From an uncultured Candidatus Saccharibacteria bacterium (GTDB lineage: Bacteria; Patescibacteriota; Minisyncoccia; Phycocordibacterales; UBA9973): a stretch of 64,000 nt of DNA. How positions within the stretch are numbered: position 1 is the first letter of the stretch; every line of letters starts with the position of its first letter. This document shows, piece after piece, positions 3,391 through 21,770 of this stretch. The notes below the pieces were generated by a model. It did no database searches. It was not told the origin of the DNA and saw only the letters and a list, made by a program, of their open reading frames with translations. Where the stretch lies: positions 211,460 to 275,459 of the forward strand of contig CAZWAV010000001.1 of assembly GCA_964631935.1 (NCBI GenBank), given 5' to 3'. The position numbers were made by a program, and so were the translations under genes.

Positions 3391-4978
3391 TGATATTTGA
3401 AGTTACTGGAATACATCCATATACTTGTAAATTCTCTCTCGTTCCGACCACTTTATCTATAATATTATTGATTATGGCCTTTTTAGCACTAAAACTCAAG
3501 TCTTTTAAGGCTTGTGATGCTTTTTCAGCAAAAGCTTTTACTTCATCTAGTTTAGGTAATTCATTTTCATTTACTTCTTCATTTTCTAAGTAAGCCTTAC
3601 CTATCTGATTATTTAATAAAGCTATCTTTTCTTTTAAAGGATTGATTTGTTCTTTAAGCTGGTCAATAGTAAGGATCCCTGCCCCATATGCTTTAGTGTA
3701 ACGATTTTCTTGATCCTTTAATTTTGCTATTTCTTTTTTAGTTTCTTCAATATTTATTGTCGAAGTTTTATCACCTACTCTTTGATTATTAAGCCAACGC
3801 TCAGCTTGCTTCAATAATAGCTCTGGAGAACTCATGAGATTTGTTATACCTTCCCATACTAGCGGATCCAATATTCTAGCATTAAGTGCTTTTTCTTTAC
3901 ATTTTGGTTTTAATGGAAAACTCTTAACTCTATCTGTACATCTATAATATAAGTGTTTACCTTGTTGTGGACCTTCGCCAGCTCTTCTTTTACCGCAATC
4001 ACACCAAAGTTTTCCTGCAAGAAGATATTCATTCTTAGTATTTCTGGAAGACATCTCAAAATTTGTTCTTAGTCTCTTTTCTGCTCGAAAAAATACATCC
4101 CGGTTTATAAGTTTAAGGGTAGGTATAATAATCCATTCACTTTCAGGTCTAAATTTTCTACTAGATTTTTTATGCTTTCTATATGTGTCTTTTTTCCATG
4201 GTTTTTGTGGTACTACAGAATAGGTAGCTCCATAGTGACCCTCGCCAATATATGTTTTATTTTTAAAAAGTGAACTTAAAGTACTAGTGTTCCAAACACC
4301 TCTTTTACTTTTTCGAGGCTGTATGCCTAATTCCTGAAGTCTTCTAACAACCGCACGTAGAGTTAATCCTTCATCTGCTACCCAGGAAAAAATCTTTTTA
4401 ACAATTTGAGCTTCGTATTTATTTATTTCATAATGACCTTGCATAAAGTCAGCATCACCCCTTTTACCTTTCTTTAATATAAAAGTGTAACCATATGGTC
4501 CTTCAGTAGAAAGAATATGACCTTCATTAGCCTTACGAACTTTGCCAAGTCTAAATCTTTCCTTAATCTTCATTCTTTCATATTCAGTGAATACCCCTCT
4601 CATCTTGTACATAATAATATCCTCATCAGTTTTAGGCTGAGGGATCGTAACAAATAAAACATCAATTTCCAGCTCCTTAAGTTCTTCCATGACTACTTCT
4701 TGCCATGATCCACGTCTAGCTAATCTATCAGGATCATAAATAAGAACTGCTTCCCACTCTTTTTTCTTTGCATCAATACGAAGCTGATCAAGTCCTGGTC
4801 TTACAAGATTGTCACCGGACCATCCTTCATCTAAATATTCTTTCACTATAATGTAACCATTCTTTTTAGCGTGCTCTCTTACACTTGAAAGTTGGGTCTC
4901 AATAGTTCCTTCATTTTCTTGATTTGAAGTTGAGACTCTACCGTATACTGCTATTAATTTATTCTTTTCCATAATCAA
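3329..4978 (-). CDS. Large serine recombinase (resolvase/invertase catalytic domain + recombinase domain + zinc ribbon)
   Basis: N-terminus LIAVYGRVSTSNQENEGTIETQ (catalytic Ser motif), ...YDPDRLARR; 549 aa; Cys-rich zinc-ribbon region (LWCDCGKRR...YYRCTDR) and coiled-coil C-terminus. Last ~20 codons overlap the ychF start. Confidence 0.85.
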   Translation of the reverse strand: MIMEKNKLIAVYGRVSTSNQENEGTIETQLSSVREHAKKNGYIIVKEYLDEGWSGDNLVRPGLDQLRIDAKKKEWEAVLIYDPDRLARRGSWQEVVMEELKELEIDVLFVTIPQPKTDEDIIMYKMRGVFTEYERMKIKERFRLGKVRKANEGHILSTEGPYGYTFILKKGKRGDADFMQGHYEINKYEAQIVKKIFSWVADEGLTLRAVVRRLQELGIQPRKSKRGVWNTSTLSSLFKNKTYIGEGHYGATYSVVPQKPWKKDTYRKHKKSSRKFRPESEWIIIPTLKLINRDVFFRAEKRLRTNFEMSSRNTKNEYLLAGKLWCDCGKRRAGEGPQQGKHLYYRCTDRVKSFPLKPKCKEKALNARILDPLVWEGITNLMSSPELLLKQAERWLNNQRVGDKTSTINIEETKKEIAKLKDQENRYTKAYGAGILTIDQLKEQINPLKEKIALLNNQIGKAYLENEEVNENELPKLDEVKAFAEKASQALKDLSFSAKKAIINNIIDKVVGTRENLQVYGCIPVTSNINVFTEYRNCWSTKRRQIDAF

Positions 4979-5165
4979 TTTTTATTACTTCCTCAAATAG
5001 GATATCAAAAGCTTTATCGACATTATTTTCTAATGAAGCTACATATTTATAATCCAAAAAGGGACAACGATGCGACTCTTTGTTGCTACACATCAAGTCT
5101 CGTTGCCCCTTTTTAGGCTCAAAAAAGTTTTTGTCGCATATTGAATTGATGTGTAGCTCATCCAT
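4959..5165 (-). CDS. Hypothetical small protein (island-associated)
   Basis: 68-aa ORF overlapping the recombinase start by 20 nt; no recognisable motif. Confidence 0.3.
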   Translation of the reverse strand: MDELHINSICDKNFFEPKKGQRDLMCSNKESHRCPFLDYKYVASLENNVDKAFDILFEEVIKIDYGKE

Positions 5166-5179
5166 TATATCATTTCTAA

Positions 5180-5851
5180 TTAATTTTTAGTATTGTTATT
5201 CCCCTTAGATTTATCGTCTACTAGTTTAAAAACCCTATAATGTGACTCTTCACTTTGCTTAGATAGCTTTAAATAGCGTTGATACCTTTTAGTAGGTTTT
5301 CCCTTGTAATGCGTACGTTTTATGCTGTATCTAATAGAGGCTAGATCGTCGTCGTTGATGGGCCGTCCAAATAGCCTAAATATCCTACTAAGGTTTCTAG
5401 ACTCATAAGTGAGGTTATGGCAGTGCCTACAGCCAAAATAGTCTCCGTCTTTATACAGAACCCCGACCCTTCTTCCACAAGGAACACCGCTCTTAGAAAG
5501 AGGACATTTAAACCAATACCGAACTCCTCCGAAGTAACAATGTGTAGTTAGTAGGTTAACTTTATAATCAAAGTCCTTCTTCTCTCCTGTCCTTCGAGAT
5601 GTTTGTGTGTATTGAATACGAAGATAATCTTCATCTCCCATAGTTACAACTTCTACGCCCACCCTGCTTCTTTCACGAGACCAATTATGAGGCCAATATA
5701 TTTCTCCAGACCTTCGTCCAATAAAATACTTATACTTGTAGAGAAAGCTGGTACTAAGTGTTATTAAATTTTCTACTTCTGTTTTACTCATATAATTTGT
5801 ATGTTCACCGAAATCAATAGGGATTGATTTGAGTTTTACTATTAATTCCAC
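5180..5851 (-). CDS. Hypothetical protein with C/H cluster (possible zinc-binding), island-associated
   Basis: 223 aa; CPLSKSGVPCGRRV...GCRHCH cluster; basic C-terminus; no family recognised. Confidence 0.45.
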   Translation of the reverse strand: MELIVKLKSIPIDFGEHTNYMSKTEVENLITLSTSFLYKYKYFIGRRSGEIYWPHNWSRERSRVGVEVVTMGDEDYLRIQYTQTSRRTGEKKDFDYKVNLLTTHCYFGGVRYWFKCPLSKSGVPCGRRVGVLYKDGDYFGCRHCHNLTYESRNLSRIFRLFGRPINDDDLASIRYSIKRTHYKGKPTKRYQRYLKLSKQSEESHYRVFKLVDDKSKGNNNTKN

Positions 5852-5953
5852 AAAAAAGGAGGGTTAGGAGGGGGAAATACAACACGTGGCCACAAAGAGA
5901 AATGCAGTTTACTTTAATAGAGAATTCCTAAATTGCCCTCCTAGCCCACCTAA

Positions 5954-7576
5954 CTAACCAGGTGATAAATCAAAATTAAGAAGATTATTATCAACATCTT
6001 GCTGTATGGATGATGTATTAAGTTTCTGATCCTTGAATCTGACACCAATCCAACAATTAACCTGTTCTATCTTTCCTGTCTCAATATTTTTTATGCTTCT
6101 TTTTGCGCTACCAATTGATATAAACTTAGGTAATTGCTTTCCGATTGTTACTTTTGTCATTCCTACTGGAAGATCATTTTTTGAGGCAAAGTTTATAAAT
6201 TCATGTTCCATTTTATCTTTAGTTATATAAACAGACGTGTCTGAAATTACCTCTAACTCACTATAGGCAAATGTTGCTAAACTTGAGGCAGACATACTCA
6301 TTTCTTTCTTTATCTCATCAGCAGACTGGCTGTAACTAAAGTTTTGACTTTGTAATAGATTATGGAGTCCTTCAAGAGCAAAATTTAATATTCCTGAAAG
6401 CTCTAGGTCCGTAGTAATCTTTTCCAACAAGAACTTGTCTGGTTTATCTGTTCTTTGTTCAAATCTTATTAATATCCACCTACTAAAATACGCATCATCA
6501 TCTGTATCCTTAATCGCTGGAATCTTATTACAAGAAAATGTTATTTTTGCATGGTTTTTAAAGGTAAATAAATCACCGAACTTTTTTTCTCCAGTTACAC
6601 CACCACCCCCAGTAAGCATCTTAAATATTCCATTATCGGTAATATCTTTGAAAGAAAGATCATCATAAATATTTGCATGTTTTTGATATAAGTTAGAAAG
6701 CGCAAATTTATCAGAGCTAAGTCTTTGCAAACTTACACCAGAAATATTTTCTTCACCTAAAAACTTAATCAAAACATTAAGTAGTGTTGTTTTCCCCGTA
6801 TCTCTTTCACCCAATAGTATGATTGCTTTTTTAAATGGATAACTCCTATATAAGCAATATCCAAACCACTCCTGTATTACTTTTACAGAATCATCATCTA
6901 GTATTTGATTCAAAAACTCTTTGAATTTAGGGCAATCAATATCTTTACTAAAATCTACGGGAATCTGATAAAGAAATAGATACTTTGGGGAATGAAACAA
7001 AAATTCTTTTGTCATTAAGTTATATACCCCATTCCTAAAATTTATTAGATGTGTATCAGCATTAAAATCTTTCCTTTCCTTGTATGTCTTATCTTTTATA
7101 TTTCTAATAATTTCCTCCCTGTAATAACTTCCACTTAAATTTTCTGTTATTTCCGATATTTCTCTTTTCACTAAACCATGATCAACTACATATACACCAT
7201 TTTTATAAATGTATATCTCTTTAGTGTTATCTCGGTTCCCGATAGTTTTAATGTTATGCTTATCAATCAAATATAAAGCTATGTCCCAAGTACCTTGAGT
7301 TTTATTTGTTTTTAAACTAGTTTTCAGTTCATCTAGCTTTTTTTCTGTATTCAATTCCTCCTTAGTTATATAGTCCTTTAAGTAGTCAAATAAATGAAGA
7401 AGTTCACTAGTTCTAATTAAGTGATTTTTATCTTTATTCCATCGTAATACCTTCGGCAAGACTACCTTATCCCAATCTGTTTTGGGCGTTGATTTAAGAT
7501 TGTTTCCAATAAAGACTTTATACTCAAGTAACACCTTTTCGTCTATTGGCTTTACTGGATTATTTATTTCATTCAT
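5954..7576 (-). CDS. Phage/plasmid primase-helicase, P4/D5 family (D5_N + SF3 NTPase)
   Basis: Walker A LLGERDTGKTTLLNVL followed by hydrophobic-D/E Walker B region, 540 aa, architecture typical of P4-alpha/D5-like primase C-terminal NTPase. Confidence 0.7.
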   Translation of the reverse strand: MNEINNPVKPIDEKVLLEYKVFIGNNLKSTPKTDWDKVVLPKVLRWNKDKNHLIRTSELLHLFDYLKDYITKEELNTEKKLDELKTSLKTNKTQGTWDIALYLIDKHNIKTIGNRDNTKEIYIYKNGVYVVDHGLVKREISEITENLSGSYYREEIIRNIKDKTYKERKDFNADTHLINFRNGVYNLMTKEFLFHSPKYLFLYQIPVDFSKDIDCPKFKEFLNQILDDDSVKVIQEWFGYCLYRSYPFKKAIILLGERDTGKTTLLNVLIKFLGEENISGVSLQRLSSDKFALSNLYQKHANIYDDLSFKDITDNGIFKMLTGGGGVTGEKKFGDLFTFKNHAKITFSCNKIPAIKDTDDDAYFSRWILIRFEQRTDKPDKFLLEKITTDLELSGILNFALEGLHNLLQSQNFSYSQSADEIKKEMSMSASSLATFAYSELEVISDTSVYITKDKMEHEFINFASKNDLPVGMTKVTIGKQLPKFISIGSAKRSIKNIETGKIEQVNCWIGVRFKDQKLNTSSIQQDVDNNLLNFDLSPG

Positions 7577-9038: not shown

Positions 9039-9196
9039 AAGGTTAATTATTAGATTTATCATTAAAAGTAGTAGAATCACGATTTACTATTTTATTGGCT
9101 TCAATTTTAACCTTTTCTATCTGTATATTTGGCGTATCACACCAACCAATCCCAGTTATTTTTATTAAGATTTTTCTAAAAAAGTTTTTCATATAA

Positions 9197-9757
9197 TTAA
9201 AGTGAATATTTTGATTCTTTTATCATGCCTTTAGTAAAATCCTTAAATCCTGGATCTTTTGTATCAATAGGAATACTACTTTCACAAAAAGCTCTTAGAT
9301 TATACTTACCATTATTTTCTGTTTTATATATCCAGGCCCAAAATATAGCATCTGGTTTATCGACAAAGAATAGATCAGCTTGCACTCCACCAGTCTCGTT
9401 ATCTTTTGCACTGAGAATAATAAATTTACTTTTATAATAAGATTTATCAAAATTATCTAATCCACACTTTTTACCGCTATCTAAATTACTCTTCTTTATT
9501 GCATATTCATCAACTCCATTATTCGTTCCATCTAGATATGCATTTAGTCCAGTACGGATATGTTTAATATATTCACTGTTATAAACTTCTTCTTCTGTCG
9601 GATTTTCACTAAATTCGGAATGTTTAGCAAGCTCTGTTTTTTGAGAATTAACCTTTGTTTCACTTGATCTGTTTTTTGACATTATAATGTAAATTGCAAT
9701 AATTACCAAAACTAATATGGCGATAACAATATAGAGTGTTTTAGTTTTTCTTTCCAT
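9197..9757 (-). CDS. Hypothetical membrane-anchored protein
   Basis: 186 aa; N-terminal TM (LYIVIAILVLVIIAIYIIM) then soluble domain. Confidence 0.5.
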   Translation of the reverse strand: MERKTKTLYIVIAILVLVIIAIYIIMSKNRSSETKVNSQKTELAKHSEFSENPTEEEVYNSEYIKHIRTGLNAYLDGTNNGVDEYAIKKSNLDSGKKCGLDNFDKSYYKSKFIILSAKDNETGGVQADLFFVDKPDAIFWAWIYKTENNGKYNLRAFCESSIPIDTKDPGFKDFTKGMIKESKYSL

Positions 9758-9807
9758 ATGTAGATTATAACAACATTAAATAAAAGCTGCTATTACAACT
9801 TTTTATA

Positions 9808-10743
9808 TTAATTCCATTCAAATCCTCTACCGAAATGACCCCAGTTTGAAGTTTCTGATAGTTTTACTTCTCCTAATTTTAGATGCTCATAAATCCCTTT
9901 TGGTGTTAGATCATATCCTTCAATTCCCATCTCTAGTCCATCTACTACAACTACTGCCATGATTGGTTCACTCCTACCTATCGCATATGCGAGCTTTGTA
10001 TATACTTCCTTGGCTTTGTACTTCTTAAGGAAATCTACGGCTATTTTACGTGCCATATAGGCCCCTGAACGGTCTACTTTTGTGTAATCCTTACCAGAGA
10101 ATGACCCTCCACCAATAGGCACTTCTGGGCCATAATTATCAATTATTAGCTTCCTACCAGAGAGACCTGTATCAGCATCAAATCCCCCTTGGCTCCACTG
10201 GCCTGCAGGATTAATTAGATACTCTTCAGACTCTATTATACTTTTCACTAAGTTTAGTAATTCATCATTCTTTGTATTCTGAAAACTAGCGACAACAGTT
10301 TTAACCTTACTATTCTCTATTGTTACTTGGGTCTTACCGTCATATGGATAAACCTTAAATATTTTCTGACACAAATCTCTAGCTAGAACATATTCAAGAG
10401 GAAGATATTCATCTGTTTCTCTTGTAGCGTAACCTTTCATTATCCCTTGATCACCAGCACCACCAGTGTCGACACCTTGAGCAATTTCTTTACTTTGTAA
10501 AACGATATTAGAAATAATTCTAAAATTATCTCCAACGATATTTTTGATGACTGTTTCAACATCTGGATTAGCTTTTGAAGTTACTTCCCCATTAATAGTA
10601 ATAAGTCCATGACCTCCCATCACTTCTATTGCACAGCGACTATTTTTATCTCCTTCTAGATATGCATCTAAAATACCATCTGCAATAAGATCACAGATCT
10701 TATCTGGATGCATTGGGCTTACAAACTCTGCTGTCTTTTTCAT
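9808..10743 (-). CDS. metK: S-adenosylmethionine synthetase (methionine adenosyltransferase), short form
   Basis: SPMHPDKICDLIAD, GGAGDQGIMKGYA, INPAG, GLSGRKLIIDNYG, GGGSFSGKDYTKVDRSGAY, YAIG, GHFGR all align to bacterial MetK motifs; only 311 aa. Confidence 0.85.
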   Translation of the reverse strand: MKKTAEFVSPMHPDKICDLIADGILDAYLEGDKNSRCAIEVMGGHGLITINGEVTSKANPDVETVIKNIVGDNFRIISNIVLQSKEIAQGVDTGGAGDQGIMKGYATRETDEYLPLEYVLARDLCQKIFKVYPYDGKTQVTIENSKVKTVVASFQNTKNDELLNLVKSIIESEEYLINPAGQWSQGGFDADTGLSGRKLIIDNYGPEVPIGGGSFSGKDYTKVDRSGAYMARKIAVDFLKKYKAKEVYTKLAYAIGRSEPIMAVVVVDGLEMGIEGYDLTPKGIYEHLKLGEVKLSETSNWGHFGRGFEWN

Positions 10744-10751
10744 ATTAAACT

Positions 10752-10905
10752 AAAAAATTCCTCATAATGAGGAAAGATAGATGACTAGTCTTATCTTTCC
10801 GAATAGTACCTTCGTACTACTTGGTTGGAATTAGCACCTTACATTTGCAGGTTGCTGAACGGATCATTGAGCCAATACTCTACTCGTTCTCTTGATACAA
10901 CTATC
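10752..10905 (-). promoter_or_regulatory. SAM-I (S-box) riboswitch with intrinsic terminator in metK leader
   Basis: Minus-strand RNA reads GUUGUAUCAAGAGA...GGCUCAAUGAUCC...CAGCAACC...GGUGCUAAUUCC...AAAGAUAAG (S-box conserved blocks), followed by UUCCUCAUUAUGAGGAAUUUUUU terminator immediately upstream of metK. Confidence 0.6.
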
Positions 10906-10930
10906 TAGTTGTAAGTATATTATAGCATTA

Positions 10931-11062
10931 TTATAAATCCTGCCAAATCTCTAATGCATCATCTGTATCCAATCCATTCTCATCAGCAAATTCCTGAAGT
11001 TCTTCTGCTTCTTCAAGACTCAAATCATTATCTTTAGCTATTTCGAATGTTTCTTCATCCAT
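10931..11062 (-). CDS. Possible 43-aa acidic peptide (MDEETFEIAKDNDLSLEEAEELQEFADENGLDTDDALEIWQDL), last gene of defence-like operon
   Basis: ORF below track cutoff; starts 2 nt after DUF2726 stop; no independent support. Confidence 0.25.
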   Translation of the reverse strand: MDEETFEIAKDNDLSLEEAEELQEFADENGLDTDDALEIWQDL

Positions 11063-11064
11063 AT

Positions 11065-11565
11065 TTACTTCAATTTTTCTAATACTAATCTCTTAATTTC
11101 TTCTTTATTAAAAGATCCATTATTCCCGAAACGTAATAATGGCATTCCTGCCTCTTGCAGCATTCTTTCCACTTCACTGTCTCGCTCTATTCTATCTGAT
11201 CTTTCGTGCGATCTATCATCGAGCTCGATTGCGAGAAGTGGTTTGATATATGCTTTATCACAGATAACAAAATCTACAGATTTTCCATTTATATGACTAA
11301 ACGCACCCTTCCAACTCTGGCCAGTTATTTTATGATCCAAGATTGTTGGTAAATGAACTTGAGTAAATACTTGATATTGTTTCCCTACTACTTCGACAAG
11401 AATATCAAAAAACTCGTGTTCTGGTCTACTTATTAAGAAATCTTTTCGCTTATACTTATATATGCTTTTTTTCTTACCTTCTTTGTATTCTGAGTCGTTA
11501 GTAAAAAGCTTTATAACTAGTCCAATAGCAATTATTATTCCTATGATTATGTAAAATTTAGTCAT
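11065..11565 (-). CDS. DUF2726-family protein (restriction-endonuclease-like fold), N-terminal membrane anchor
   Basis: 166 aa; TM helix FYIIIGIIIAIGLVI then ...DFVICDKAYIKPLLAIELDDRSHERSDRIERDSEVERMLQEAGMPLLRF typical of DUF2726/NERD-like nuclease-fold proteins. Confidence 0.6.
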   Translation of the reverse strand: MTKFYIIIGIIIAIGLVIKLFTNDSEYKEGKKKSIYKYKRKDFLISRPEHEFFDILVEVVGKQYQVFTQVHLPTILDHKITGQSWKGAFSHINGKSVDFVICDKAYIKPLLAIELDDRSHERSDRIERDSEVERMLQEAGMPLLRFGNNGSFNKEEIKRLVLEKLK

Positions 11566-11566
11566 G

Positions 11567-12316
11567 TTATTTTTCTAATTCTTTTCTTGCATTCCAATAA
11601 GCACACCAGTCACAATGCTCTCCGGATTCTGGTATGGTATCATTGTCTAAACATTTTTTTATCTCAAACAATGTTTTTTCTACCCATGAATCATTACCTT
11701 TATGTTCAATTAAGTTAACATCAAAATCAATTCGCTTATCGAAAGCCTCTCTATCCATTTTCCCAGTACAATAGACAAAATAACCAATATCAGATACCTT
11801 GAGCCCATTCTGTCTCAAAAGCCATTGATACACCTCCATTTGACGTTTATAGCCATCTTGCCACTCTTTATCCAGTGCCTTTACGGCTTCATCCTTTGCA
11901 GTAGCTTTATAATCCACAACAATATATTCATCTTTTCCATTGATCCATAAATCGTCAATTGCACCGGTTACCATGAGCCCTGTTGGTTCATGTAAATATC
12001 TAATACCTCCAAAATTCCTTCGCCACTCATCAAGCTCTTCGTGAGACATAGGTCGTGCATCTATTCCATATTCTTTTTGTAGCGGATGCTGTTCATTCTT
12101 CACGCGGTATGAATCAAACTCTTGTTTAAGAAGATGGTCCACTGCGCTGTTTATGGAAAAAGGAAATCCAGGTACTCTTTTTACACCGAGTTTGTTATCT
12201 ATATAGAAACATCGTGGACACTCTTTGAATAAATCGATTTTAGAACGAGAAAGTTTCCAGTTCTTTCCTCCGTAATTCCACGACTCCATTCTGTTTGGGT
12301 TATAATATTCCGACAT
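11567..12316 (-). CDS. Cas4/RecB-family PD-(D/E)xK nuclease with Fe-S cysteine tetrad (PDDEXK_1/DUF83-like)
   Basis: Motifs GAIDDLW (II), VVDYKATAK (III), QMEVYQW (QhxxY), Cys pairs CPRC (N-term) and CDWC (C-term); 249 aa. Confidence 0.7.
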   Translation of the reverse strand: MSEYYNPNRMESWNYGGKNWKLSRSKIDLFKECPRCFYIDNKLGVKRVPGFPFSINSAVDHLLKQEFDSYRVKNEQHPLQKEYGIDARPMSHEELDEWRRNFGGIRYLHEPTGLMVTGAIDDLWINGKDEYIVVDYKATAKDEAVKALDKEWQDGYKRQMEVYQWLLRQNGLKVSDIGYFVYCTGKMDREAFDKRIDFDVNLIEHKGNDSWVEKTLFEIKKCLDNDTIPESGEHCDWCAYWNARKELEK

Positions 12317-12318
12317 AG

Positions 12319-12978
12319 TTATTTTTTAATTATTGATTCATTCTCCTTATATGCAGAAAAAATTACCTCTAAAGTATAAAAGGAATTCTGAAGTTTAACT
12401 ATATCTAAGTATATATCAATCAAATCCCTTTTATTTATATTTTTTAATATTTCTTTATAATTTAATTTTATTTTAAGGCTATTTTGAGGATATTTAAAAC
12501 TTGTATTATCACTATCTTCAATCTCAAAATTTTTATTTATAATATTTTTAAATGTTTCAAGATTCTGATATTTATTAACAATCATCATTAAATCATATAT
12601 TTTATCTATGATATTATCATGACTTTTGTTTACAAAAACCCAATATTCATTATCCTTATTTTTTTCATAAGTTGTATTAATTACTTTTTTAATTGAACTT
12701 AAATTAGTTAAATTCATTACATCTCTTAATATTTGAAGATTATCATGAGTTTCATATTTTTTAATCAAAGCCTTTTGTTCTAATAAAACAATAAAAAATT
12801 TAAGATACAACTCAATTCCATGTTTTATATTAAAAATCATTGATATGTATAGATCCTCAATCTCAGACTCTACATTATTATATTTTTTATATTGCATCTC
12901 ACTACAAGCCAAAGAAGCTATATTTAAATAATTTCTAGCAAAAATAGACCAGTTTTCTTTTATATCATTGTGTTTCAT
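12319..12978 (-). CDS. Hypothetical protein (N/K/I-rich), operon member
   Basis: 219 aa; no recognisable motif; 4-nt overlap with MTase gene stop, 2-nt gap to nuclease gene. Confidence 0.5.
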   Translation of the reverse strand: MKHNDIKENWSIFARNYLNIASLACSEMQYKKYNNVESEIEDLYISMIFNIKHGIELYLKFFIVLLEQKALIKKYETHDNLQILRDVMNLTNLSSIKKVINTTYEKNKDNEYWVFVNKSHDNIIDKIYDLMMIVNKYQNLETFKNIINKNFEIEDSDNTSFKYPQNSLKIKLNYKEILKNINKRDLIDIYLDIVKLQNSFYTLEVIFSAYKENESIIKK

Positions 12979-15900
12979 TTTTTACTTGAATTTTCTATAA
13001 TTTCAATTTCTTCTGGAGTAAGTTTATAGAGTTTATAAACCAATTCATCTATTTGATGCTCGAGTTTTTTAGTATCATTATCCTTATTTTGTTTTTTATG
13101 ATCAATAACTTGATTAACCAAACCTTCTATTGCTTTTTTTATTTCCAAATTAGTTTCAGCTGGAATAATTGGAAGCTCGTTTACGAATATTTTTGAGATA
13201 TCATATCCTGCATTACCCAAAGATGCACCAATTAATTTGAAGTAGAAAAAATTTAACTTTGAATTTAATATGCCTAATAAGTACTTCAAGTTATTACCAA
13301 TAATAAAGAAACATTTTTGGTTTACAAGAACCCCTGAATCATCATATGCAGCGGCAAATTCTTTATTAATATTTGGATAAATAATTTTATTTTGCTCCAT
13401 TTCTTTAAGATAACGTTCGGAAGGGTTTTGATCTAATTCGATCCAGTTATGATCACCTCTTATAACTTGTGCCCGACTTTCTAAAATTTCTTTATAGTGA
13501 CTTAAATGTTTTTTTATTGCTGGGTATTTATCGATAATTTTATGTGTACCATAATATGTTGTTATTAAATATTTATGTTGCCAATCATAGCTATATTTAG
13601 CAACATCCTTTCCTCTTAAAATTGGTTTAATAAAAACTTCTGAATTTTTATCATTCTTAATTAATTCATTTCTCTTGGCTTCATCTACAATAAAAACACC
13701 TTCCTTTTCACCTGAACTATTTTTAGTATCGTTTCTGCCTGTCAAAATACCATAATTAATTTTTATTGAAGTCCAATCTTTTAATTTTAAACCCCTTGCT
13801 TCAATAGATGCTTTTAAATTAGCAACACTTTGGTCAATTAAGGCGAATGAATTTTCTCCTAAGTCAGACTGTTTCATTTTGTATAAAATATCATCAATCC
13901 GTTGTCCATATTTTAAATAATGTTCTCCGTTTTGTCCTCCTTTTCTAATAATAATTATATTTGTGTCTACAGTAGCAGTTTCAAATTGACCTCCACCCAA
14001 ATCAATTAATACTTCAATTTTAGTCTTGTTTTTTAACAATAGCCTAAGCTTATCACCATATCTTGAACGCATCCATTTGTTACTTGTTATATATGTGAGG
14101 GTTCCGTATTCAGAAAGTAAGTTATAACCTAGTTCATAAAAATAACAGTAAATATCAGCGGTAGTATTTCCAACGTCGTAATTAGAACACAATTCGTCTT
14201 TAAATTTTTTAGGTAAGTCACGGTGTCGAATATATGGCGGATTACCTATCACAATGTCAAAACCACCTTTTTGCTCAAATACATCAGCAAAATGAAGCTT
14301 CCAAAGAAAAAATGGTTTGATCTTGGATTTCTTAAATCCTTCAATTTTGCTCAATTCTGAAGTCTTACCTTGTTCTATTAATGTAGCTTCAATAAGCTCC
14401 CATTCAAGTCTCTCTATTTCTTTTTTAATACTTTCTTTTTTATCTTTCTTGTTTGTCTCAAAAAAATGCTTTTGTAATAACTTTAATTGATCTGCTTTGA
14501 ATTTAGATTCCTTGTGTTTATCAAAATCAAAAAGTCCAGAAACTTCAATATTAACTTTCTCTGTTTTCGTAAGTTTTTTCAGTTGATCATGTATACTTTT
14601 GGCCTCAGTGTCTAGTTCAACTTTCTTTATAGGTGTTAATTTATTATCTGCATTAAGTCTAAAATACTCTTTTTGCAAAACAGACTGTTTCTTTTTTAAG
14701 TCTTCAATTTGTTTTTCTTTATCTGTATCTATAGTCTTTATTATATTTTCATCAAAAAGTTTTACGCCTTCATATTCCTCAAGCAATGAATTACCTTGCA
14801 TAATCTTGTAATCCAAATTCGGAAGCACTGGCGGAGCAATCTTAGGGTCATTTGATTCAAATTCAACTATAAGAGCAAGCCAGAACCGAAGTTTAGCTAT
14901 TTCCACTGCTCCTGGCTCAAGATCAACGGCGTAAATACAATTTTCAAGAGTTTCTTTTTTGATATCATAAAGTGATAATTCTTTCCCTGTATCATTAGTC
15001 TTATGAAGGAAGTTTGTATTCAGATAATGCCTCACAGAAGATATCTCGTTTAGCATACCCATAGGAAATGCCCCAGAACCGACAGCCGGGTCAACAATTT
15101 TTACATTACGAAGTGAGACATCAACTTTTTCTGCAATATCTTTAAGTTCTTGCATCCTCTTTATGATTTCTGTTTTTTTATAATCATCAACTAGTATAGA
15201 TAGATCAGTATCTTTATTTTCAAATAGTTTCCTAATTCTATCTTCAGGAGCAGTATCTTCGGAAACTAAGTGCTGAATTAAACTTTCTCGGCACATATAG
15301 TGCACTATCTCTCTAGGAGTATAGAAAGCTCCTTTATCCTTCCTATCCTTAACCTCAAGAAGATTTTCAAAAATCTTACCGAGCATTTCTGGATCAACAG
15401 ATATTTCCTGGTCAGATGGTGTGTTTTCATCTACGGTAAAATTATATTGGTCAAAGAAATCTAGTAATTTACCCAAAACTTCATTATGAATGTTTATCTC
15501 TGTATTTTTCCAATCATACACACTTTCAAATAAACCTCCATTTAAAAATGGAATTCTACAATTTAACTGCTCAAAAAAATCATCCTCACCTCGTTTCTCA
15601 GCTAAAGCCTCGTAAAACAAAGGCTCAAGATAATCATCAAAATAATTTTGATTAGTTTTTCTACAGGTTTCAAATAAAGATCGCAAATATCCTTGATCTC
15701 CAGTACCCCAATTTTCGTTCGGTCGTACTCCGAGCCAACCTTTTTTTTGAACAAAATATAAAAAGACGATTTGTCCCATTAATTTTTTAACAAAATCAGG
15801 GGTCGTGGAAATACCTGTTTTAACGACTATATTTTGGAATTCATTATTATCTTCAAAATCTTCAAGTATTTCTATAAATAAATCACGATAATTTTTAAAG

Positions 15901-16436
15901 AACTCCTTTGTAACTTTTTCTACTGAAAATAGTTCTTTTAATTCTTTAAAATTTGTAAATTTAAGAGAAGCTACTTGTTGTAGAAAAGTAACATTTTTCT
16001 GTTGTTTAGATACAAAATAAGTGAATCTCCTGAAAGTGCTGTAATTTACTTTTGTACCAACATAATCAGCATAAATCAAACTCATACGAAACCCTCCCTT
16101 ACTATCGTAATAAACAAAAATCCCTGCTCTAGCTTTTGGGAAGTTCTTTAATATTTTTTTCCCTAAATCGTATTGAGTTTTTCTACTTGCTCGTTCATTT
16201 AATGGTGTAAGTGACCGTGAACAAATAACTATAATATTTACATTATCTTCAAGATCGAAATCCCCTAGCTGTGAAAAATCAGTAAATTGTTTGTCGTTAA
16301 ATGTTGGAAGTGGGTTTTGTTGAACTCTAAAAAAATCATGACTCTTAAGTATCTCTGCTAATGAAGCAGCAGAGAAATCATCAATTAGTTTTTGGAATTT
16401 AACCTGGCTCATAATATTACATATTTCTATTTTCAA
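12975..16436 (-). CDS. Large gamma-class N6-adenine DNA methyltransferase (Eco57I/type IIG/PglX/DrmMI-like), 1153 aa
   Basis: Motif I VDPAVGSGAFPMGML followed downstream by motif IV FDIVIGNPPYI; ~400-aa N-terminal and ~350-aa C-terminal extensions of unknown role. Confidence 0.85.
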   Translation of the reverse strand: MKIEICNIMSQVKFQKLIDDFSAASLAEILKSHDFFRVQQNPLPTFNDKQFTDFSQLGDFDLEDNVNIIVICSRSLTPLNERASRKTQYDLGKKILKNFPKARAGIFVYYDSKGGFRMSLIYADYVGTKVNYSTFRRFTYFVSKQQKNVTFLQQVASLKFTNFKELKELFSVEKVTKEFFKNYRDLFIEILEDFEDNNEFQNIVVKTGISTTPDFVKKLMGQIVFLYFVQKKGWLGVRPNENWGTGDQGYLRSLFETCRKTNQNYFDDYLEPLFYEALAEKRGEDDFFEQLNCRIPFLNGGLFESVYDWKNTEINIHNEVLGKLLDFFDQYNFTVDENTPSDQEISVDPEMLGKIFENLLEVKDRKDKGAFYTPREIVHYMCRESLIQHLVSEDTAPEDRIRKLFENKDTDLSILVDDYKKTEIIKRMQELKDIAEKVDVSLRNVKIVDPAVGSGAFPMGMLNEISSVRHYLNTNFLHKTNDTGKELSLYDIKKETLENCIYAVDLEPGAVEIAKLRFWLALIVEFESNDPKIAPPVLPNLDYKIMQGNSLLEEYEGVKLFDENIIKTIDTDKEKQIEDLKKKQSVLQKEYFRLNADNKLTPIKKVELDTEAKSIHDQLKKLTKTEKVNIEVSGLFDFDKHKESKFKADQLKLLQKHFFETNKKDKKESIKKEIERLEWELIEATLIEQGKTSELSKIEGFKKSKIKPFFLWKLHFADVFEQKGGFDIVIGNPPYIRHRDLPKKFKDELCSNYDVGNTTADIYCYFYELGYNLLSEYGTLTYITSNKWMRSRYGDKLRLLLKNKTKIEVLIDLGGGQFETATVDTNIIIIRKGGQNGEHYLKYGQRIDDILYKMKQSDLGENSFALIDQSVANLKASIEARGLKLKDWTSIKINYGILTGRNDTKNSSGEKEGVFIVDEAKRNELIKNDKNSEVFIKPILRGKDVAKYSYDWQHKYLITTYYGTHKIIDKYPAIKKHLSHYKEILESRAQVIRGDHNWIELDQNPSERYLKEMEQNKIIYPNINKEFAAAYDDSGVLVNQKCFFIIGNNLKYLLGILNSKLNFFYFKLIGASLGNAGYDISKIFVNELPIIPAETNLEIKKAIEGLVNQVIDHKKQNKDNDTKKLEHQIDELVYKLYKLTPEEIEIIENSSKK

Positions 16437-19400
16437 CAGCTATTACTACTTCTTGTGTATTTAGTTTTGTTGCTGACTTAATTTTGTCTAAATAATCAAA
16501 ACCGAGATTATTTTTAAGTTCACTTAAGGTTTCTAATATTATTTTAGAGCTGTCTTTTGAATTCTCAATTGTAGGCATATCAGCCAATCGACGAAGTGTA
16601 AAAGTGCTTAACGTCTGGTAATCAGTAAGATCGTCAAGTAAGGTTCGGACAAAAGGAGCAAAGTCTTGTACATCTTCATTAAAGCTTTCAATATTTTGTA
16701 AAAGTGAGTTCAGATTATTAAAAGATTTAGTTTCAATAGCCATTTGTGATGAGTTTTGAGTTCTCTGCTCTATGATTTTTGAAGTTTCATAATTCTCCCA
16801 AAACATAGAACTTCTTGGAATAGATTTTTCATCTGGAGTAGTCTTTATTCTTTCAATAACTTCTTCTAAATTTAAGTCACGTACTTCTTTTTCGTCATTA
16901 ATCATACCTCTGACAAAAAGGGGTCTCCCTTTACGAATAAAAACAAGTAGATCATTTTCATTAAATTTTTTAGCAACTTTAATACGAGCAGGTAATTTCT
17001 TTATTTTTTCGATAACCTCAGGGTGTTTAGTCTTTATTTCATAATATAGACGACGGATTGTGGTAATGAAACTTTCTACTTCAAGTGCTTCTGGGTTTTG
17101 TTGCAACTTCGTAAAGAGTCCAGCAGCAGATGGATTCTCGTCTGGGCTAAATATCTTAGAGTCTTCTCCAAGAGTGCTATGAATCATGAACATCTTATTT
17201 TCAGCAATCTCTCTATTCTTTACGTACTCAGAACCTTTAATTGTTGGAAAGAAATTATAAATATATAAATTTTCAAAAACTTTTTGCCCTATACGGTTTA
17301 TACGACCAACACGTTGGATAACTCTAGTAGGGTTCCATGGAATATCATAGTTTACAACAGCACCACTTTTACTTAAGTTAAAACCTTCTGAAATTTTATC
17401 TGTACCAACTAATATAGAGTAAGTTTCTTCCTGTTTCTTTTGACTAGCATCAAAGTTTTTTAATACTTCATCAATCCGACCAGTAGATGTACTTCCGTAC
17501 ACAGACAACACCTTTCCTTTAAATTTTTTATCAAGACTTTCGAAAACATGTTTTGCGGTATCAGCATATTCAGTAAAGATCACAATCTTTCTATCTGGTT
17601 CACCCTTATTTTCTTTTGTATTTAATATTTCTTCAATTCTATGTGACAAAGCTAATACTTTTGGATCATTTTCTACTAACTTTAATTCATCTAATTCCGT
17701 TTTAATTTTCTCAAATAGCTCTTTATCTTTTTGTAAATCACCTAAGAATTTATCTTTTTCTTTAAAAGAATCAATGTTGTATTTCTTAGACTTCTTATCA
17801 TTAACTAAATCCTCTATAGACTCCGACATTTTAACCATACACTCTATAACTTCATCTTCATCCCCATCTGAAATCGCTTCAATAAGCTTTCTATCTAAAG
17901 TAAACTTACCTCCTGTTTTTTCAATAAAATCTAACGATTTACATGTTATCGCATAAAAATTATTTATACTTTCTGCAAATGCATTAAATGAGCTTTCAAA
18001 ACGTTTTATTAGTAATCTTCGCATGAAGTGAAACAAGTTTGTCTGAGAAATATATTCTAAATTTTCTTCTTCTCCAATAATTCTCTCTCCCTCAGCTCGT
18101 CCTTTTTCATAAACAGATGGACGATACATTGCACCGTTAAACAAACCATCTTCGCCAAAATAATCACTTATAACTCGATCATAAAAATCAGACTGTTCTT
18201 TAGAAAGCTCATAATAAACTTCTCTGGGATCAGAAATTTTAGATAAGTCTTTAACTTCCTTTGAATACTCAGGGTCATTCTTCAAATCGATTCTATTTCG
18301 ACGAATAACCACAGGTTCAATTATTTGGCGTATCCTATTGGAAATATACTTGATACGACCATTAACTTTACCGGTTTCAACTACAGCACTTCCAAACATA
18401 GTTGCATAAGTAGAAATAGCTTTCTCTCTTTTATTTTTATCTGTTGAATTATAGTCTTTATTAATATCACTTAATTTTTTAAACATGTTTTTATAATCTC
18501 TAAATTCAATTGAAAGATTTGGCGCAATAGTGAGCTGCGATTTACCTGGGACAATAAACAACTTTAATAGAGCAAATATATCTGCTGGGGAGTTATTAAA
18601 GGGTGTAGCCGTTAATAAAATTACCTTGCGATTTTTACAAATCATACTTAGTAACTCATAGGCTTCTGTATCTTGGTTACGAAAACGATGAGCTTCATCA
18701 ACAACAATAACATCTATATCGTTTCGTTCTTGAACAAATTTCAATGTACTACGTAGCGTAGCAAGGCCACATGATCTAACTTCCCAACCATACAATTCAA
18801 AGTCTTCTAAATATTTTTTCCAACCTGAAGATTTATTATCATCACCAACCAAGCCAGGAGGACAGATAACAAGACCTCTTTTACCCAATTGCTTTGCAAC
18901 CATGCCTGTAATAACACTCTTACCAAGTCCCACAACGTCAGCTATAATTGCTCCTCCTGACTCCTCAATCATTCCTAGGGCTTGAGAAGCTGCGTCTAGT
19001 TGATATTTGTATGTTATATAGCCATTCTTTTCTAATAGCTCTTTGATGGAACTAGAAACTTCAACTTGAGACTGCGCATCAAGATAGTGTTGGAGGATAG
19101 AAGCATAAGCTTCAAAGGGAGTTGGTTCAGCAATAAGAGTCTCTTGTTTTAATAAGTTAATTAATTCTTGTTTATATTGTTCTGTTTCTGTAATCTTTAT
19201 AGAACTTTCCCAGAGCTCATCAAAATATTTATCAGCGTCTTCTGTGCCAAAATCACCTAATTCTACATTAAATTCATGCTGATTTGAAAGTCCAGAGCGA
19301 GTTAGGTTACTACTTCCTGTTATAAAAACAGATTTTCTAATAGTTGCCAGTTGGTCTTTTATTTTAAATATATAAAGCTTTGCATGATTTGGTTCTAATG

Positions 19401-19779
19401 TTTTACGAATTTGTAGCTGGCCACTATTAATCAAATCAATAAAGAATAATATTTTCTTCTCAAAATCTTCATTATCAAATTCATCACTAGCTAATGAACT
19501 TTTTACAGAACCAAAGTAATTTTTAATTTTCTCTCTATTTGTTAAGTTGTTGCTATTTTCTGAATACTCGAAAAGACCGTGAACCCCCTTGTCTGCATTA
19601 AGTCCAACTAACACATCCATTTTAATATCAGGACGATCTTTTATGCTTTCATACAATTCAGCAATTCCTGAAAAATAGAAAAAACCTACAAGAAACTTCA
19701 GTTCTTTGCTGTTTTCGATTAATTCAACAAGTCGCTTTTTTAGATCCTTCCCTGCCTCATTCGTTATAAAATTAGTCAT
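16417..19779 (-). CDS. PLD-family nuclease domain fused to SNF2-family helicase, 1120 aa
   Basis: N-terminus: NHAKLYIFKIKD...ITGSSNLT (single HxK...GSxN PLD motif). Helicase: VIVVDEAHRFRN (DEAH), ILLTATPFNN, C-terminal helicase motifs (VGTDKISEGFNL, QRVGRINRIGQ). Confidence 0.85.
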   Translation of the reverse strand: MTNFITNEAGKDLKKRLVELIENSKELKFLVGFFYFSGIAELYESIKDRPDIKMDVLVGLNADKGVHGLFEYSENSNNLTNREKIKNYFGSVKSSLASDEFDNEDFEKKILFFIDLINSGQLQIRKTLEPNHAKLYIFKIKDQLATIRKSVFITGSSNLTRSGLSNQHEFNVELGDFGTEDADKYFDELWESSIKITETEQYKQELINLLKQETLIAEPTPFEAYASILQHYLDAQSQVEVSSSIKELLEKNGYITYKYQLDAASQALGMIEESGGAIIADVVGLGKSVITGMVAKQLGKRGLVICPPGLVGDDNKSSGWKKYLEDFELYGWEVRSCGLATLRSTLKFVQERNDIDVIVVDEAHRFRNQDTEAYELLSMICKNRKVILLTATPFNNSPADIFALLKLFIVPGKSQLTIAPNLSIEFRDYKNMFKKLSDINKDYNSTDKNKREKAISTYATMFGSAVVETGKVNGRIKYISNRIRQIIEPVVIRRNRIDLKNDPEYSKEVKDLSKISDPREVYYELSKEQSDFYDRVISDYFGEDGLFNGAMYRPSVYEKGRAEGERIIGEEENLEYISQTNLFHFMRRLLIKRFESSFNAFAESINNFYAITCKSLDFIEKTGGKFTLDRKLIEAISDGDEDEVIECMVKMSESIEDLVNDKKSKKYNIDSFKEKDKFLGDLQKDKELFEKIKTELDELKLVENDPKVLALSHRIEEILNTKENKGEPDRKIVIFTEYADTAKHVFESLDKKFKGKVLSVYGSTSTGRIDEVLKNFDASQKKQEETYSILVGTDKISEGFNLSKSGAVVNYDIPWNPTRVIQRVGRINRIGQKVFENLYIYNFFPTIKGSEYVKNREIAENKMFMIHSTLGEDSKIFSPDENPSAAGLFTKLQQNPEALEVESFITTIRRLYYEIKTKHPEVIEKIKKLPARIKVAKKFNENDLLVFIRKGRPLFVRGMINDEKEVRDLNLEEVIERIKTTPDEKSIPRSSMFWENYETSKIIEQRTQNSSQMAIETKSFNNLNSLLQNIESFNEDVQDFAPFVRTLLDDLTDYQTLSTFTLRRLADMPTIENSKDSSKIILETLSELKNNLGFDYLDKIKSATKLNTQEVVIAVENRNM

Positions 19780-20053
19780 AAATCATAGGATATCAGGTAA
19801 TAAAAACTGTATCGATTATACCACTGAAAGCCTAATTTATAAAGCTGTTTTAAATATAAGAAATATAACAAATCTAGCTGTAAGGTAAATTTTTTTTAAG
19901 TGGTTTAAACCCATAATCCACCCCACTCTTAAGCGGTGGAGGGATCTTTAGAACGAGGGAGAAAGGAATAAAATGTGGGGTTGTACCCATACCATTCCTA
20001 TAGATAATGACATGGATAGAATATAGCAGAAATGGCGATACTTTCAAAGAATA

Positions 20054-21694: not shown

Positions 21695-21765
21695 GGGCGA
21701 TTAGTTTAGTGGTAGAACGAAGGTCTCCAAAACCTTTGGTGGGGGTTCGATTCCTCCATCGCCCG
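21695..21765 (+). tRNA. tRNA-Trp (anticodon CCA)
   Basis: Cloverleaf read by eye: acceptor GGGCGAT/ATCGCCC, anticodon stem AAGGT/ACCTT, loop CTCCAAA, T-loop GGTTCGATTCC; CCA not encoded. Confidence 0.85.
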
Positions 21766-21770
21766 CATAT

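Follow-up and report, generated by a model that had tools for sequence, protein, structure and literature searches.

We describe a gene pair on the minus strand of a 64,000-nucleotide (nt) stretch of DNA from an uncultured Candidatus Saccharibacteria bacterium (contig CAZWAV010000001.1, positions 211,460 to 275,459), which is called the window throughout. The first gene of the pair encodes a phospholipase D (PLD)-type nuclease domain with an HKD motif fused to a SNF2 helicase (the HKD-SNF2 protein), and the second an Eco57I-type DNA methyltransferase (MTase). An earlier note, made from the letters of this DNA, had drawn attention to the fusion. The pair and its parts, with domain limits in amino acid (aa) numbering of the HKD-SNF2 protein, are the following.

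16417..19779, minus strand: HKD(PLD)-SNF2 fusion gene, an open reading frame (ORF) of 1,120 aa recognised through Pfam, PADLOC C3a139 and PHROG 26785; proposed restriction subunit uniting motor and nuclease
19189..19779, minus strand: N-terminal, predicted single-HKD PLD nuclease domain, aa 1-~197, delimited from an AlphaFold2 (AF2) model, Foldseek and motifs
18160..19014, minus strand: SNF2 ATPase lobe 1, aa ~256-540, with Walker A, DEAH and TATPFNN, from Pfam, motifs and the AF2 model
17605..18159, minus strand: helical insertion separating the two ATPase lobes, aa ~541-725, from the secondary structure of the full-length AF2 model
17140..17604, minus strand: SNF2 ATPase lobe 2 (Helicase_C), aa ~726-880, with motifs V and VI, from Pfam Helicase_C
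16420..17139, minus strand: C-terminal alpha+beta domain, aa ~881-1120, from the AF2 model
12975..16412, minus strand: Eco57I/TaqI_C-type gamma-class N6-adenine DNA MTase with a fused target recognition domain (TRD), from Pfam, motifs, PDB profile matches and neighbour conservation; proposed modification and specificity subunit

A single-HKD nuclease domain

The signature of the N-terminal domain consists of NHAKLYIF at aa 131-138 (nt 19366-19389), with the HxK tripeptide at aa 132-134, and of GSSNLT at aa 155-160 (nt 19300-19317), with GSSN at aa 155-158. H132, K134, G155, S156, S157, N158 and E169 are invariant in 43 full-length homologues. In Pfam, aa 112-190 are recognised as a PLD-like domain (PLDc_2, 31.2 bits for a cut-off of 27), and RE_NgoFVII matches as well (26.4 bits versus 23.8). 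The AF2 model of aa 1-250, with a mean pLDDT (predicted score of the local distance difference test) of 79.8, matched only PLD folds in the PDB: all 35 Foldseek matches at E <= 1e-3 were of this fold (FAM83, PSS, F13 and PPK included), with SauUSI (7clg, E 2.5e-7) as the best one, followed by the NgoAVII R protein (4rct), Zucchini, NucT, BfiI (2c1l) and Nuc. Because motifs, Pfam matches and fold search agree, the N-terminal domain is assigned, at the level of sequence and model, as a Nuc/BfiI-type single-HKD PLD nuclease. The earlier note had called it Nuc/BfiI-like from its motif, and structure prediction, which the note had named as a check, indeed gave a PLD fold for this region.

The claim of the earlier note that only one HKD motif is present held up as well. 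A regular-expression scan found the HxK tripeptide exactly once in the 1,120 residues, and no second or degenerate HKD repeat was detected when the HKD profile was aligned by hhalign with the remaining 920 residues (aa 201-1120; probability <1%), or separately with the C-terminal domain and with the inter-lobe insert (probability <1% each). Nuc and BfiI are single-HKD PLD nucleases in which two subunits form one active site, and from this known chemistry of the family we infer that the HKD domain studied here would have to dimerise. SauUSI, the closest structural match, is a dimer joined by its PLD nuclease domains and translocates upon ATP hydrolysis (PMC7913695).

A complete SNF2 motor

The remainder of the protein is a complete SNF2 translocase, as the earlier note had described it. 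Pfam recognises SNF2-rel_dom (49 bits for a cut-off of 24.9), Helicase_C at aa 719-831 (68.5 versus 23.5) and, marginally, ResIII (23.4 versus 22.5). All motor motifs are intact, among them Walker A (GLGKS, aa 284-288, nt 18916-18930), DEAH (aa 361-364, nt 18688-18699), motif III (TATPFNN) and motif VI (QRVGRINRIGQ, aa 822-832), and all are invariant across the alignment of the 43 full-length homologues. SNF2 proteins are double-stranded DNA translocases. The full-length AF2 model (mean pLDDT 81.1) found RapA (6bog) as its best Foldseek match, over 1,197 aligned columns, and by sequence the solved structures matched were SNF2/Rad54, CHD, ISWI and RapA; no SauUSI chain was among these sequence matches. 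Mean pairwise identity among homologues reaches 62% in the HKD domain, 64-67% in the motor, 53% in the inter-lobe insert and 47% in the C-terminal domain, the least conserved region of the protein.

The partner methyltransferase

The partner MTase (METHYLTRANSFERASE) measures 1,145 aa when translated from ATG 16412 and 1,153 aa from TTG 16436. Pfam recognises Eco57I (134 bits), TaqI_C (63 bits) and N6_Mtase, while MmeI_Mtase scores 25 bits, under its cut-off of 27. The MTase motifs are intact, with motif I (DPAVGSGAF) at nt 15066-15092 and NPPY at nt 14232-14243. When the family profile was compared with the PDB, the matches (CamA, BseCI, PglX/BrxX, TaqI, MmeI and BpuSI) covered the MTase-TRD part only. 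Identity is uneven along the protein, at ~40% over the N-terminal ~430 residues, 32-49% in the catalytic core and 19-21% in the TRD; such a hypervariable TRD is what would be expected of diversifying specificity.

The far N-terminus was inspected for a nuclease. Residues 1-170 gave no Pfam match even at E <= 5, and at the sequence level no PD-ExK motif was found in them, with no ExK present and D103 as the sole invariant acidic residue. The segment aa ~210-300 weakly matches the MmeI helical spacer in some members. By its sequence the protein looks like a Type IIG-style enzyme in which the nuclease domain has been replaced. A bifunctional Type IIG enzyme in the strict sense was considered and set aside at this level of evidence: the gamma-class MTase-TRD part is present, and the N-terminal PD-ExK motif was not found.

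The earlier note had also read a 20-nt overlap between the two genes as a sign of stoichiometric co-expression. The overlap exists only if the MTase starts at TTG 16436, which is the mechanical longest-ORF start. The alternative, ATG 16412, lies 4 nt past the helicase stop codon (TAA tatt ATG), was chosen by gene callers on three of the four contigs with an identical protein, and aligns with the N-termini of 40 homologous MTases, in which M1 is invariant. This ATG being the likely start, the overlap is probably not real and the argument built on it is not supported in that form, the two genes still being tightly juxtaposed.

Pairing of the two genes across related loci

To describe the gene neighbourhood of the family, all ORFs lying within 10 kb of the helicase gene were clustered at 82 related loci, and the pairing itself was counted in the 32 loci where the sequence extends for at least 4 kb to either side. 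In every one of these 32, an MTase gene lies on the same strand as the helicase gene, immediately downstream or upstream. The MTase cluster occurs in 58 of the 82 loci and the next largest neighbour cluster in 11, and no third conserved partner was found among the neighbour clusters. DUF499, DUF3780, DrmA/B, PglZ, BrxC-like and BrxL proteins were likewise absent as conserved neighbours in the 82 loci, and 11 large proteins (>=714 aa) encoded near the helicase gene in 11 different loci belong to unrelated Pfam families or to none, with no DUF499 protein among them. Where helicase and MTase genes are separated, the genes in between vary (DUF4062-HATPase_c_4, YhcG, DUF559, DUF4268, ORF6N with Fic). 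The pairing is retained at 25-39% helicase identity, in RefSeq records of Natrinema, Allomeiothermus and Parabacteroides replicons.

At two loci (L008 and L005) unrelated genes stand on either side of the pair, which we counted in favour of two-gene sufficiency. The first of these is a Dehalococcoidales contig on which a WYL regulator gene precedes the pair and unrelated genes for iron transport come after it. In Dehalococcoides mccartyi the pair lies inside a mobile region, and the contexts seen are mobile and defence-island-like, with recombinases, primases, the WYL regulator, and neighbouring RAMP and McrB-like genes.

The divergence of the helicase correlates with that of the MTase, with a Mantel r of 0.50 for the N-terminal 38% of the MTase and of 0.25, the weakest value, for the TRD. 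The suggestion of the earlier note that the fusion protein acts as an effector of a methylation-linked restriction system gains support from these results: an MTase gene accompanies the helicase gene in 32/32 loci as its sole conserved neighbour, the two proteins co-diverge, and the MTase has no recognisable nuclease motif.

The pair could also represent two independent systems, with the MTase being a self-contained Type IIG enzyme or an orphan, and the HKD-SNF2 protein a stand-alone enzyme such as a SauUSI-like Type IV nuclease. The best PADLOC model for the MTase is indeed REase_MTase_IIG (Type IIG restriction enzyme-methyltransferase; E 1e-165), the closest structure to the HKD domain is that of a Type IV enzyme, SauUSI, and the C-terminal domain of the helicase could read DNA. 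Such independence fits poorly with a same-strand pairing that is universal among the 32 loci and persists at identities as low as 25% and in archaea, with the co-divergence of the two proteins, and with an MTase N-terminus in which neither a PD-ExK motif nor a match to an MmeI-type nuclease was found by sequence; moreover, a Type IV enzyme permanently tied to an adenine MTase would run a risk of self-attack. We therefore consider two independent systems improbable, and a SauUSI-like Type IV classification of the helicase was rejected on the MTase partner found in 32/32 loci.

Several recurrent neighbours were recorded alongside the pair. A ~540-aa DUF4062-HATPase_c_4 protein, bearing the RefSeq name 'RNA-binding domain-containing protein', is the second most frequent neighbour; in 11 of the 82 loci (as at L015 13305-14804 and L095 7433-8977) its gene sits next to the helicase or MTase gene or separates the two. 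The regulator directly upstream of the pair at L008 (6910-7875) has an HTH_11-WYL-WCX architecture, and resembles the BrxR/CapW-type regulators of other defence systems. A ~1,000-aa protein without Pfam match is common to two Patescibacteria-type loci, L009 (17670-20669) and L043 (8346-11519; phmmer E 3e-124), where it sits between the MTase gene and a Cas4-like gene; it is absent from the window.

A large and already catalogued family

A word-indexed protein search with the HKD-SNF2 protein returned 5,365 proteins at E <= 1e-10, distant SNF2 relatives included. More than 100 full-length relatives at 50-57% identity were among the matches listed, in addition to closer ones, and because of them the fusion is not a chance artefact. 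A pattern scan of one genome per GTDB species confirmed at least 571 relatives, of which the best 80 share 42-56% identity, most of them over nearly the full length, and belong to Patescibacteria, Chloroflexota (including Dehalococcoidia), Bacteroidota, Nitrospirota, Planctomycetota, Aquificota, Cloacimonadota, Bacillota, Desulfobacterota and other phyla. Distant relatives at 25-39% identity were found on replicons of Allomeiothermus, Thermus, Parabacteroides and haloarchaea (Thermales and haloarchaeal plasmids).

Searched alone against representatives of 50%-identity clusters, the HKD domain (aa 1-200) had 759 matches at E <= 1e-3, of which 350 reached E <= 1e-10. Among the best 150 of the 759, 77 proteins are 1,039-1,224 aa long and match at their extreme N-terminus, and therefore this HKD subtype, judged by sequence matches, seems to occur mostly as the N-terminal domain of HKD-SNF2 helicases; the remaining 73 are <=808 aa and possibly represent fragments from short contigs.

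The sole full-length PADLOC match of the protein is C3a139 "HKD+Snf2" (PDLC01075; aa 105-1090, E 6.9e-36), and PHROG 26785 matches aa 3-894. By these profile matches it belongs to a large, catalogued and functionally undefined family, C3a139 / PHROG 26785. As an architecture, the HKD-SNF2 fusion is thus neither rare nor new, contrary to the earlier note, which had taken it as unusual. New with respect to the literature searched is the strictly two-gene form with an Eco57I-type MTase, of which no description was found there.

C3a139 was set up from four occurrences beside type III CRISPR cassettes (Shah et al. 2019, PMC6546367), and these occurrences, together with C3a139 being the only full-length PADLOC match, could make the protein an accessory nuclease-helicase of type III CRISPR-Cas that provides processive DNA degradation. 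At one locus (L040, Anaerolinea thermolimosa) two RAMP-superfamily genes indeed lie directly downstream of the helicase gene (13508-15389), and this adjacency is probably where the 'type III CRISPR accessory' label of the family comes from. This was the only locus with RAMP genes among the neighbours scanned against Pfam, the conserved neighbours of the 82 loci included no RAMP or cas cluster, none of the window genes examined was CRISPR-associated, and the invariant partner is an MTase rather than a cas gene. We give a CRISPR-accessory role hardly any weight.

A proposed two-component restriction-modification system

On the basis of the domain content, the intact catalytic residues, the strict two-gene linkage, the hypervariable TRD and the lack of a recognisable nuclease motif in the MTase, we propose, with a probability of about 0.6, that the HKD-SNF2 protein and the Eco57I-type MTase form a two-component ATP-dependent restriction-modification (RM) system following a logic like that of Type I, Type III and Type ISP systems. 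The TRD of the MTase would bind a specific, probably asymmetric, DNA site, at which adenine methylation would mark the host DNA. At an unmethylated site the MTase would instead recruit or activate the HKD-SNF2 subunit, probably via its conserved N-terminal ~430 residues, located where MmeI-type enzymes have their nuclease and helical spacer. Hydrolysing ATP, the SNF2 core would then power translocation along double-stranded DNA. Because one HKD domain would supply half a PLD active site, cleavage would require two of them, brought together either in a constitutive homodimer as in SauUSI or by two converging complexes that collide as in Type ISP or Type III systems; in the latter case, host DNA that is hemimethylated after replication would be protected as well.

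The same division of labour has been proposed for nuclease-motif-free MmeI homologues flanked by a helicase (Morgan et al. 2009, PMC2731913), and also for Type-2 BREX-related systems, with an HKD-Snf2 helicase as their proposed primary effector (Rakesh & Krishnan 2026, PMC12839542). In a Vibrio strain, yeeAB conferred phage resistance (bioRxiv 10.1101/2021.05.05.442762). A further-reaching suggestion, which we advance tentatively and hold to be rather doubtful, is that the pair constitutes a distinct ATP-dependent RM class that has not yet been recognised as a system. It would be the minimal two-gene form of a SNF2/PglX-like module that is elaborated in bacteriophage exclusion (BREX) type 3, defence island system associated with restriction-modification (DISARM) class 1, ARMADA and BREX-related systems, and its half-active-site HKD domain would enforce cutting by two motors, whether through two sites, collision or a dimer, a requirement with which an enzyme methylating a single strand could tolerate hemimethylated host DNA.

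Several points weigh against the proposed RM system. In the HKD motif, the canonical aspartate of HxK(x)4D is replaced by lysine, the spacing of 20 residues between HxK and GSxN is longer than in Nuc, and both AF2 models have their lowest confidence in the GSSN loop (aa 156-171). The PADLOC call of the MTase as a Type IIG enzyme counts on the same side, and a cryptic nuclease in its residues 1-170 is possible at the sequence level. The Mantel correlation reflects co-inheritance, not contact. The SNF2 and PglX-like modules of BREX, DISARM and ARMADA need extra proteins and are not simple systems that cut unmethylated DNA. Finally, the analogous DnmA-YeeB-YeeC cluster of B. subtilis showed neither restriction nor phage defence (PMC7261158, PMC9973331). 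This last precedent also favours a decayed or domesticated relic, as proposed for the B. subtilis cluster, in which the MTase would serve as an orphan epigenetic regulator and the helicase-nuclease would no longer restrict. With every catalytic motif intact in both proteins, both ORFs at full length, strong purifying selection on the family as a whole, and a 10.9-kb block around the pair that is 99.5% identical in a second genomic context, we judge a relic to be distinctly improbable.

If the two genes suffice for restriction, they would define a compact ATP-dependent architecture made of a PLD nuclease, a SNF2 motor and a gamma-class MTase-TRD. The pair occurs in archaea and across many bacterial phyla, with Patescibacteria, Dehalococcoides and gut Bacteroidota among its carriers, and current pipelines annotate it only as a "helicase-related protein" next to a gene called "Type IIG" or "N-6 DNA methylase". 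The pair would then offer a simple experimental model of how the SNF2/PglX-like modules of BREX, DISARM and related systems sense unmethylated DNA, and would represent an extra barrier when these hard-to-manipulate organisms are to be transformed. Nothing is overturned by the proposal; precedents exist for every component and for the overall logic.

Comparison with known systems

Type-2 BREX-related (BR) systems come close to the pair. They comprise a DUF499 ATPase, an N6-MTase, an HKD-Swi2/Snf2 helicase and a DUF3780 protein, and share with it an N-terminal HKD endoDNase on a RapA-like Swi2/Snf2 helicase, an N6-adenine MTase and a proposed RM-like mode of action (PMC12839542). The DUF499 AAA+ ATPase is the defining core of all BR systems and DUF3780 occurs in 98% of Type-2 BR loci (PMC12839542), whereas here two genes stand without DUF499 or DUF3780 in the window or in the related loci examined. 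Membership in Type-2 BR was rejected on the absence of these two proteins and on a third-gene position that is not conserved; the organisms and accessions tested were not found in the supplements of PMC12839542.

SauUSI (PDB 7CLG) shares the order of an N-terminal single-HKD PLD nuclease followed by a superfamily 2 (SF2) ATPase. It differs by its own C-terminal TRD, which reads methylated cytosine, and by the lack of an MTase partner; in our pair the motor is a RapA-like SNF2 one and specificity presumably comes from the partner MTase. The restriction-enzyme PLD subtype (RE_NgoFVII; 4rct, 2c1l) is the same as in NgoAVII/CglI and BfiI, and according to PMC5861437 the NgoAVII/CglI enzymes need a separate ATPase/helicase-like subunit. 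In those enzymes the PLD domain sits on a B3-like DNA-binding domain and the motor is separate, whereas here the PLD domain sits on the motor and recognition is presumably left to the MTase.

The YeeA(DnmA)-YeeB-YeeC cluster likewise has a large gamma-class MTase-TRD without a PD-ExK N-terminus that is invariably linked to a helicase gene (PMC2731913), and was proposed to be Type I-like, with the MTase giving specificity and modification (Morgan et al. 2009, PMC2731913). Its nuclease is a separate GIY-YIG/T5orf172 protein, as opposed to an HKD nuclease fused to a SNF2/RapA-like helicase. An assignment of our pair to YeeABC was rejected, with no GIY-YIG gene in the operon and an MTase that is Eco57I/CamA/PglX-like and not clearly of the MmeI clade.

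Type ISP (LlaGI, LlaBIII) and Type III enzymes also couple a nuclease, an SF2 ATPase, an adenine MTase and a TRD, and they act at asymmetric sites, with two sites and long-range ATP-dependent communication before cutting (see PMC3874165). A Type ISP enzyme is a single polypeptide with an Mrr-like PD-(D/E)XK nuclease, as against the PLD, SNF2 and gamma-class Eco57I-type MTase parts found here. In Type III systems, Res carries a C-terminal PD-(D/E)XK nuclease and Mod is of the beta class, as against a PLD nuclease and a gamma-class MTase.

DISARM class 1 combines the DrmD SNF2 helicase, the DrmMI adenine MTase, DrmA, DrmB and the DrmC PLD nuclease. It resembles the pair in that DrmD and DrmMI are among the best named hidden Markov model (HMM) matches and in its use of a PLD nuclease, and differs in that the PLD domain is here fused to the SNF2 protein. 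It was rejected as a classification: DrmD matched aa 578-899 only, DrmMI was partial and far under its cut-off, and DrmA and DrmB (DUF1998) were absent from the window operon and from the conserved neighbours at the 82 loci. NCBIfam phospholipD_antiphage, ZorD, DpdE, BrxH and HmaA were also rejected, with matches confined to the helicase C-lobe and well under the cut-offs.

These matches bear on a BREX/DISARM-like exclusion mechanism, in which the pair would mark self and block the replication of unmarked DNA mainly without cutting it, the HKD domain being a back-up effector or having another target. Its favourable points are that the helicase has DrmD, BrxHI/II, HmaA and DpdE as its best named HMM matches and the MTase has PglX and DrmMI, that modules of a RapA-like SNF2 protein and a PglX/YeeA-like MTase are found repeatedly, in BREX type 3, ARMADA and BREX-related systems, and that the MTase profile matches PglX/BrxX structures. 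Set against them, the scores lie far under the cut-offs (172.5 versus 610 for DrmD, 81 versus 500 for PglX), partners of the BrxC/DUF499, PglZ, BrxL or DrmA/B type are not conserved, and the HKD domain has invariant catalytic residues and is as conserved as the motor. An exclusion mechanism hence retains a real but low probability.

The C3a139 and PHROG 26785 entries, for their part, describe the same protein family at the HMM level, nearly over its full length. They are catalogue entries without a defined system, and the type III CRISPR link of the former was not reproduced in the loci examined.

Operon and mobile context in the window

The other features of the region are the following.

19815..19843, minus strand: promoter-like site, a TG-extended TTTATA-17-TATAAT, which is a consensus match only and lies 35 nt upstream of the HKD-SNF2 start
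12319..12978, minus strand: 219-aa protein, lineage-specific third gene, whose start overlaps the MTase stop (ATGA)
11567..12316, minus strand: Cas4-like PD-(D/E)XK nuclease (PDDEXK_1, Pfam 54 bits) with Cys33/Cys36 and Cys235/Cys238
11065..11565, minus strand: DUF2726 protein of 166 aa, last gene of the operon (Pfam 100.7 bits)
9113..20002: 10.9-kb block containing the HKD-SNF2, MTase, 219-aa, Cas4-like nuclease and DUF2726 genes, a 43-aa ORF, a 311-aa MetK and a 186-aa gene
3329..7576, minus strand: large serine recombinase (Resolvase+Recombinase+Zn_ribbon_recom, 549 aa), 223-aa protein and D5_N/DUF5906 primase-helicase (540 aa), adjoining the cassette
2275..3390: housekeeping gene YchF, flanking on one side
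21695..21766: tRNA-Trp, which with cupin and miaA genes flanks the other side

Five genes follow one another between 19779 and 11065, and their four junctions are, in order, a 4-nt spacer, an ATGA overlap, and spacers of 2 nt and 1 nt. Packed this tightly, they are read as one operon, and on this arrangement the helicase and MTase genes are likely co-transcribed. The operon is preceded by a 274-nt intergenic region that holds the extended -10-like site; promoter-like sites in general were not enriched over shuffled sequences (62 versus 56.3), and the terminator scan did not exceed shuffled expectation either. An inverted repeat (…CCCTCCACCGCTTAAGAGTGGGGTGG…; 19900..19990, minus strand) lies in the intergenic stretch that separates the cupin and HKD-SNF2 genes, near the block border at 20002, and may serve the upstream gene as a terminator.

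The last three genes are lineage-specific additions and not part of the core. They were rejected as core genes since they are not syntenic in a 72%-identical relative, and the third-gene position as such was rejected too, the small third genes of Patescibacteria-type loci being mutually non-homologous. The 219-aa protein had no match in Pfam, NCBIfam, PADLOC or PHROGs and no homologue at that position in relatives, and no DUF2726 gene was found beside the pair in other loci. A Cas4-like gene recurs 5-9 kb downstream of the pair only in three other Patescibacteria-type loci, L009 (20672-21415), L030 (18875-19627) and L043 (13511-14203), and is absent in L091; its product could be a lineage-specific accessory nuclease or simply that of a conserved neighbouring gene. 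In an Andersenbacteria genome the Cas4-like protein is 80% identical where the helicase is only 53% identical.

The 10.9-kb block is 99.5% identical in contigs L001-L003, in which both flanks are unrelated to those of the window; no direct repeats were seen by eye at its borders. With the short MetK of the block, a S-adenosylmethionine (SAM) synthetase thus travels together with a SAM-dependent MTase cassette; this MetK scores under the NCBIfam metK cut-off (234 versus 309). With the serine recombinase and the primase-helicase adjoining the cassette, the region looks like an integrative element that carries or abuts defence genes.

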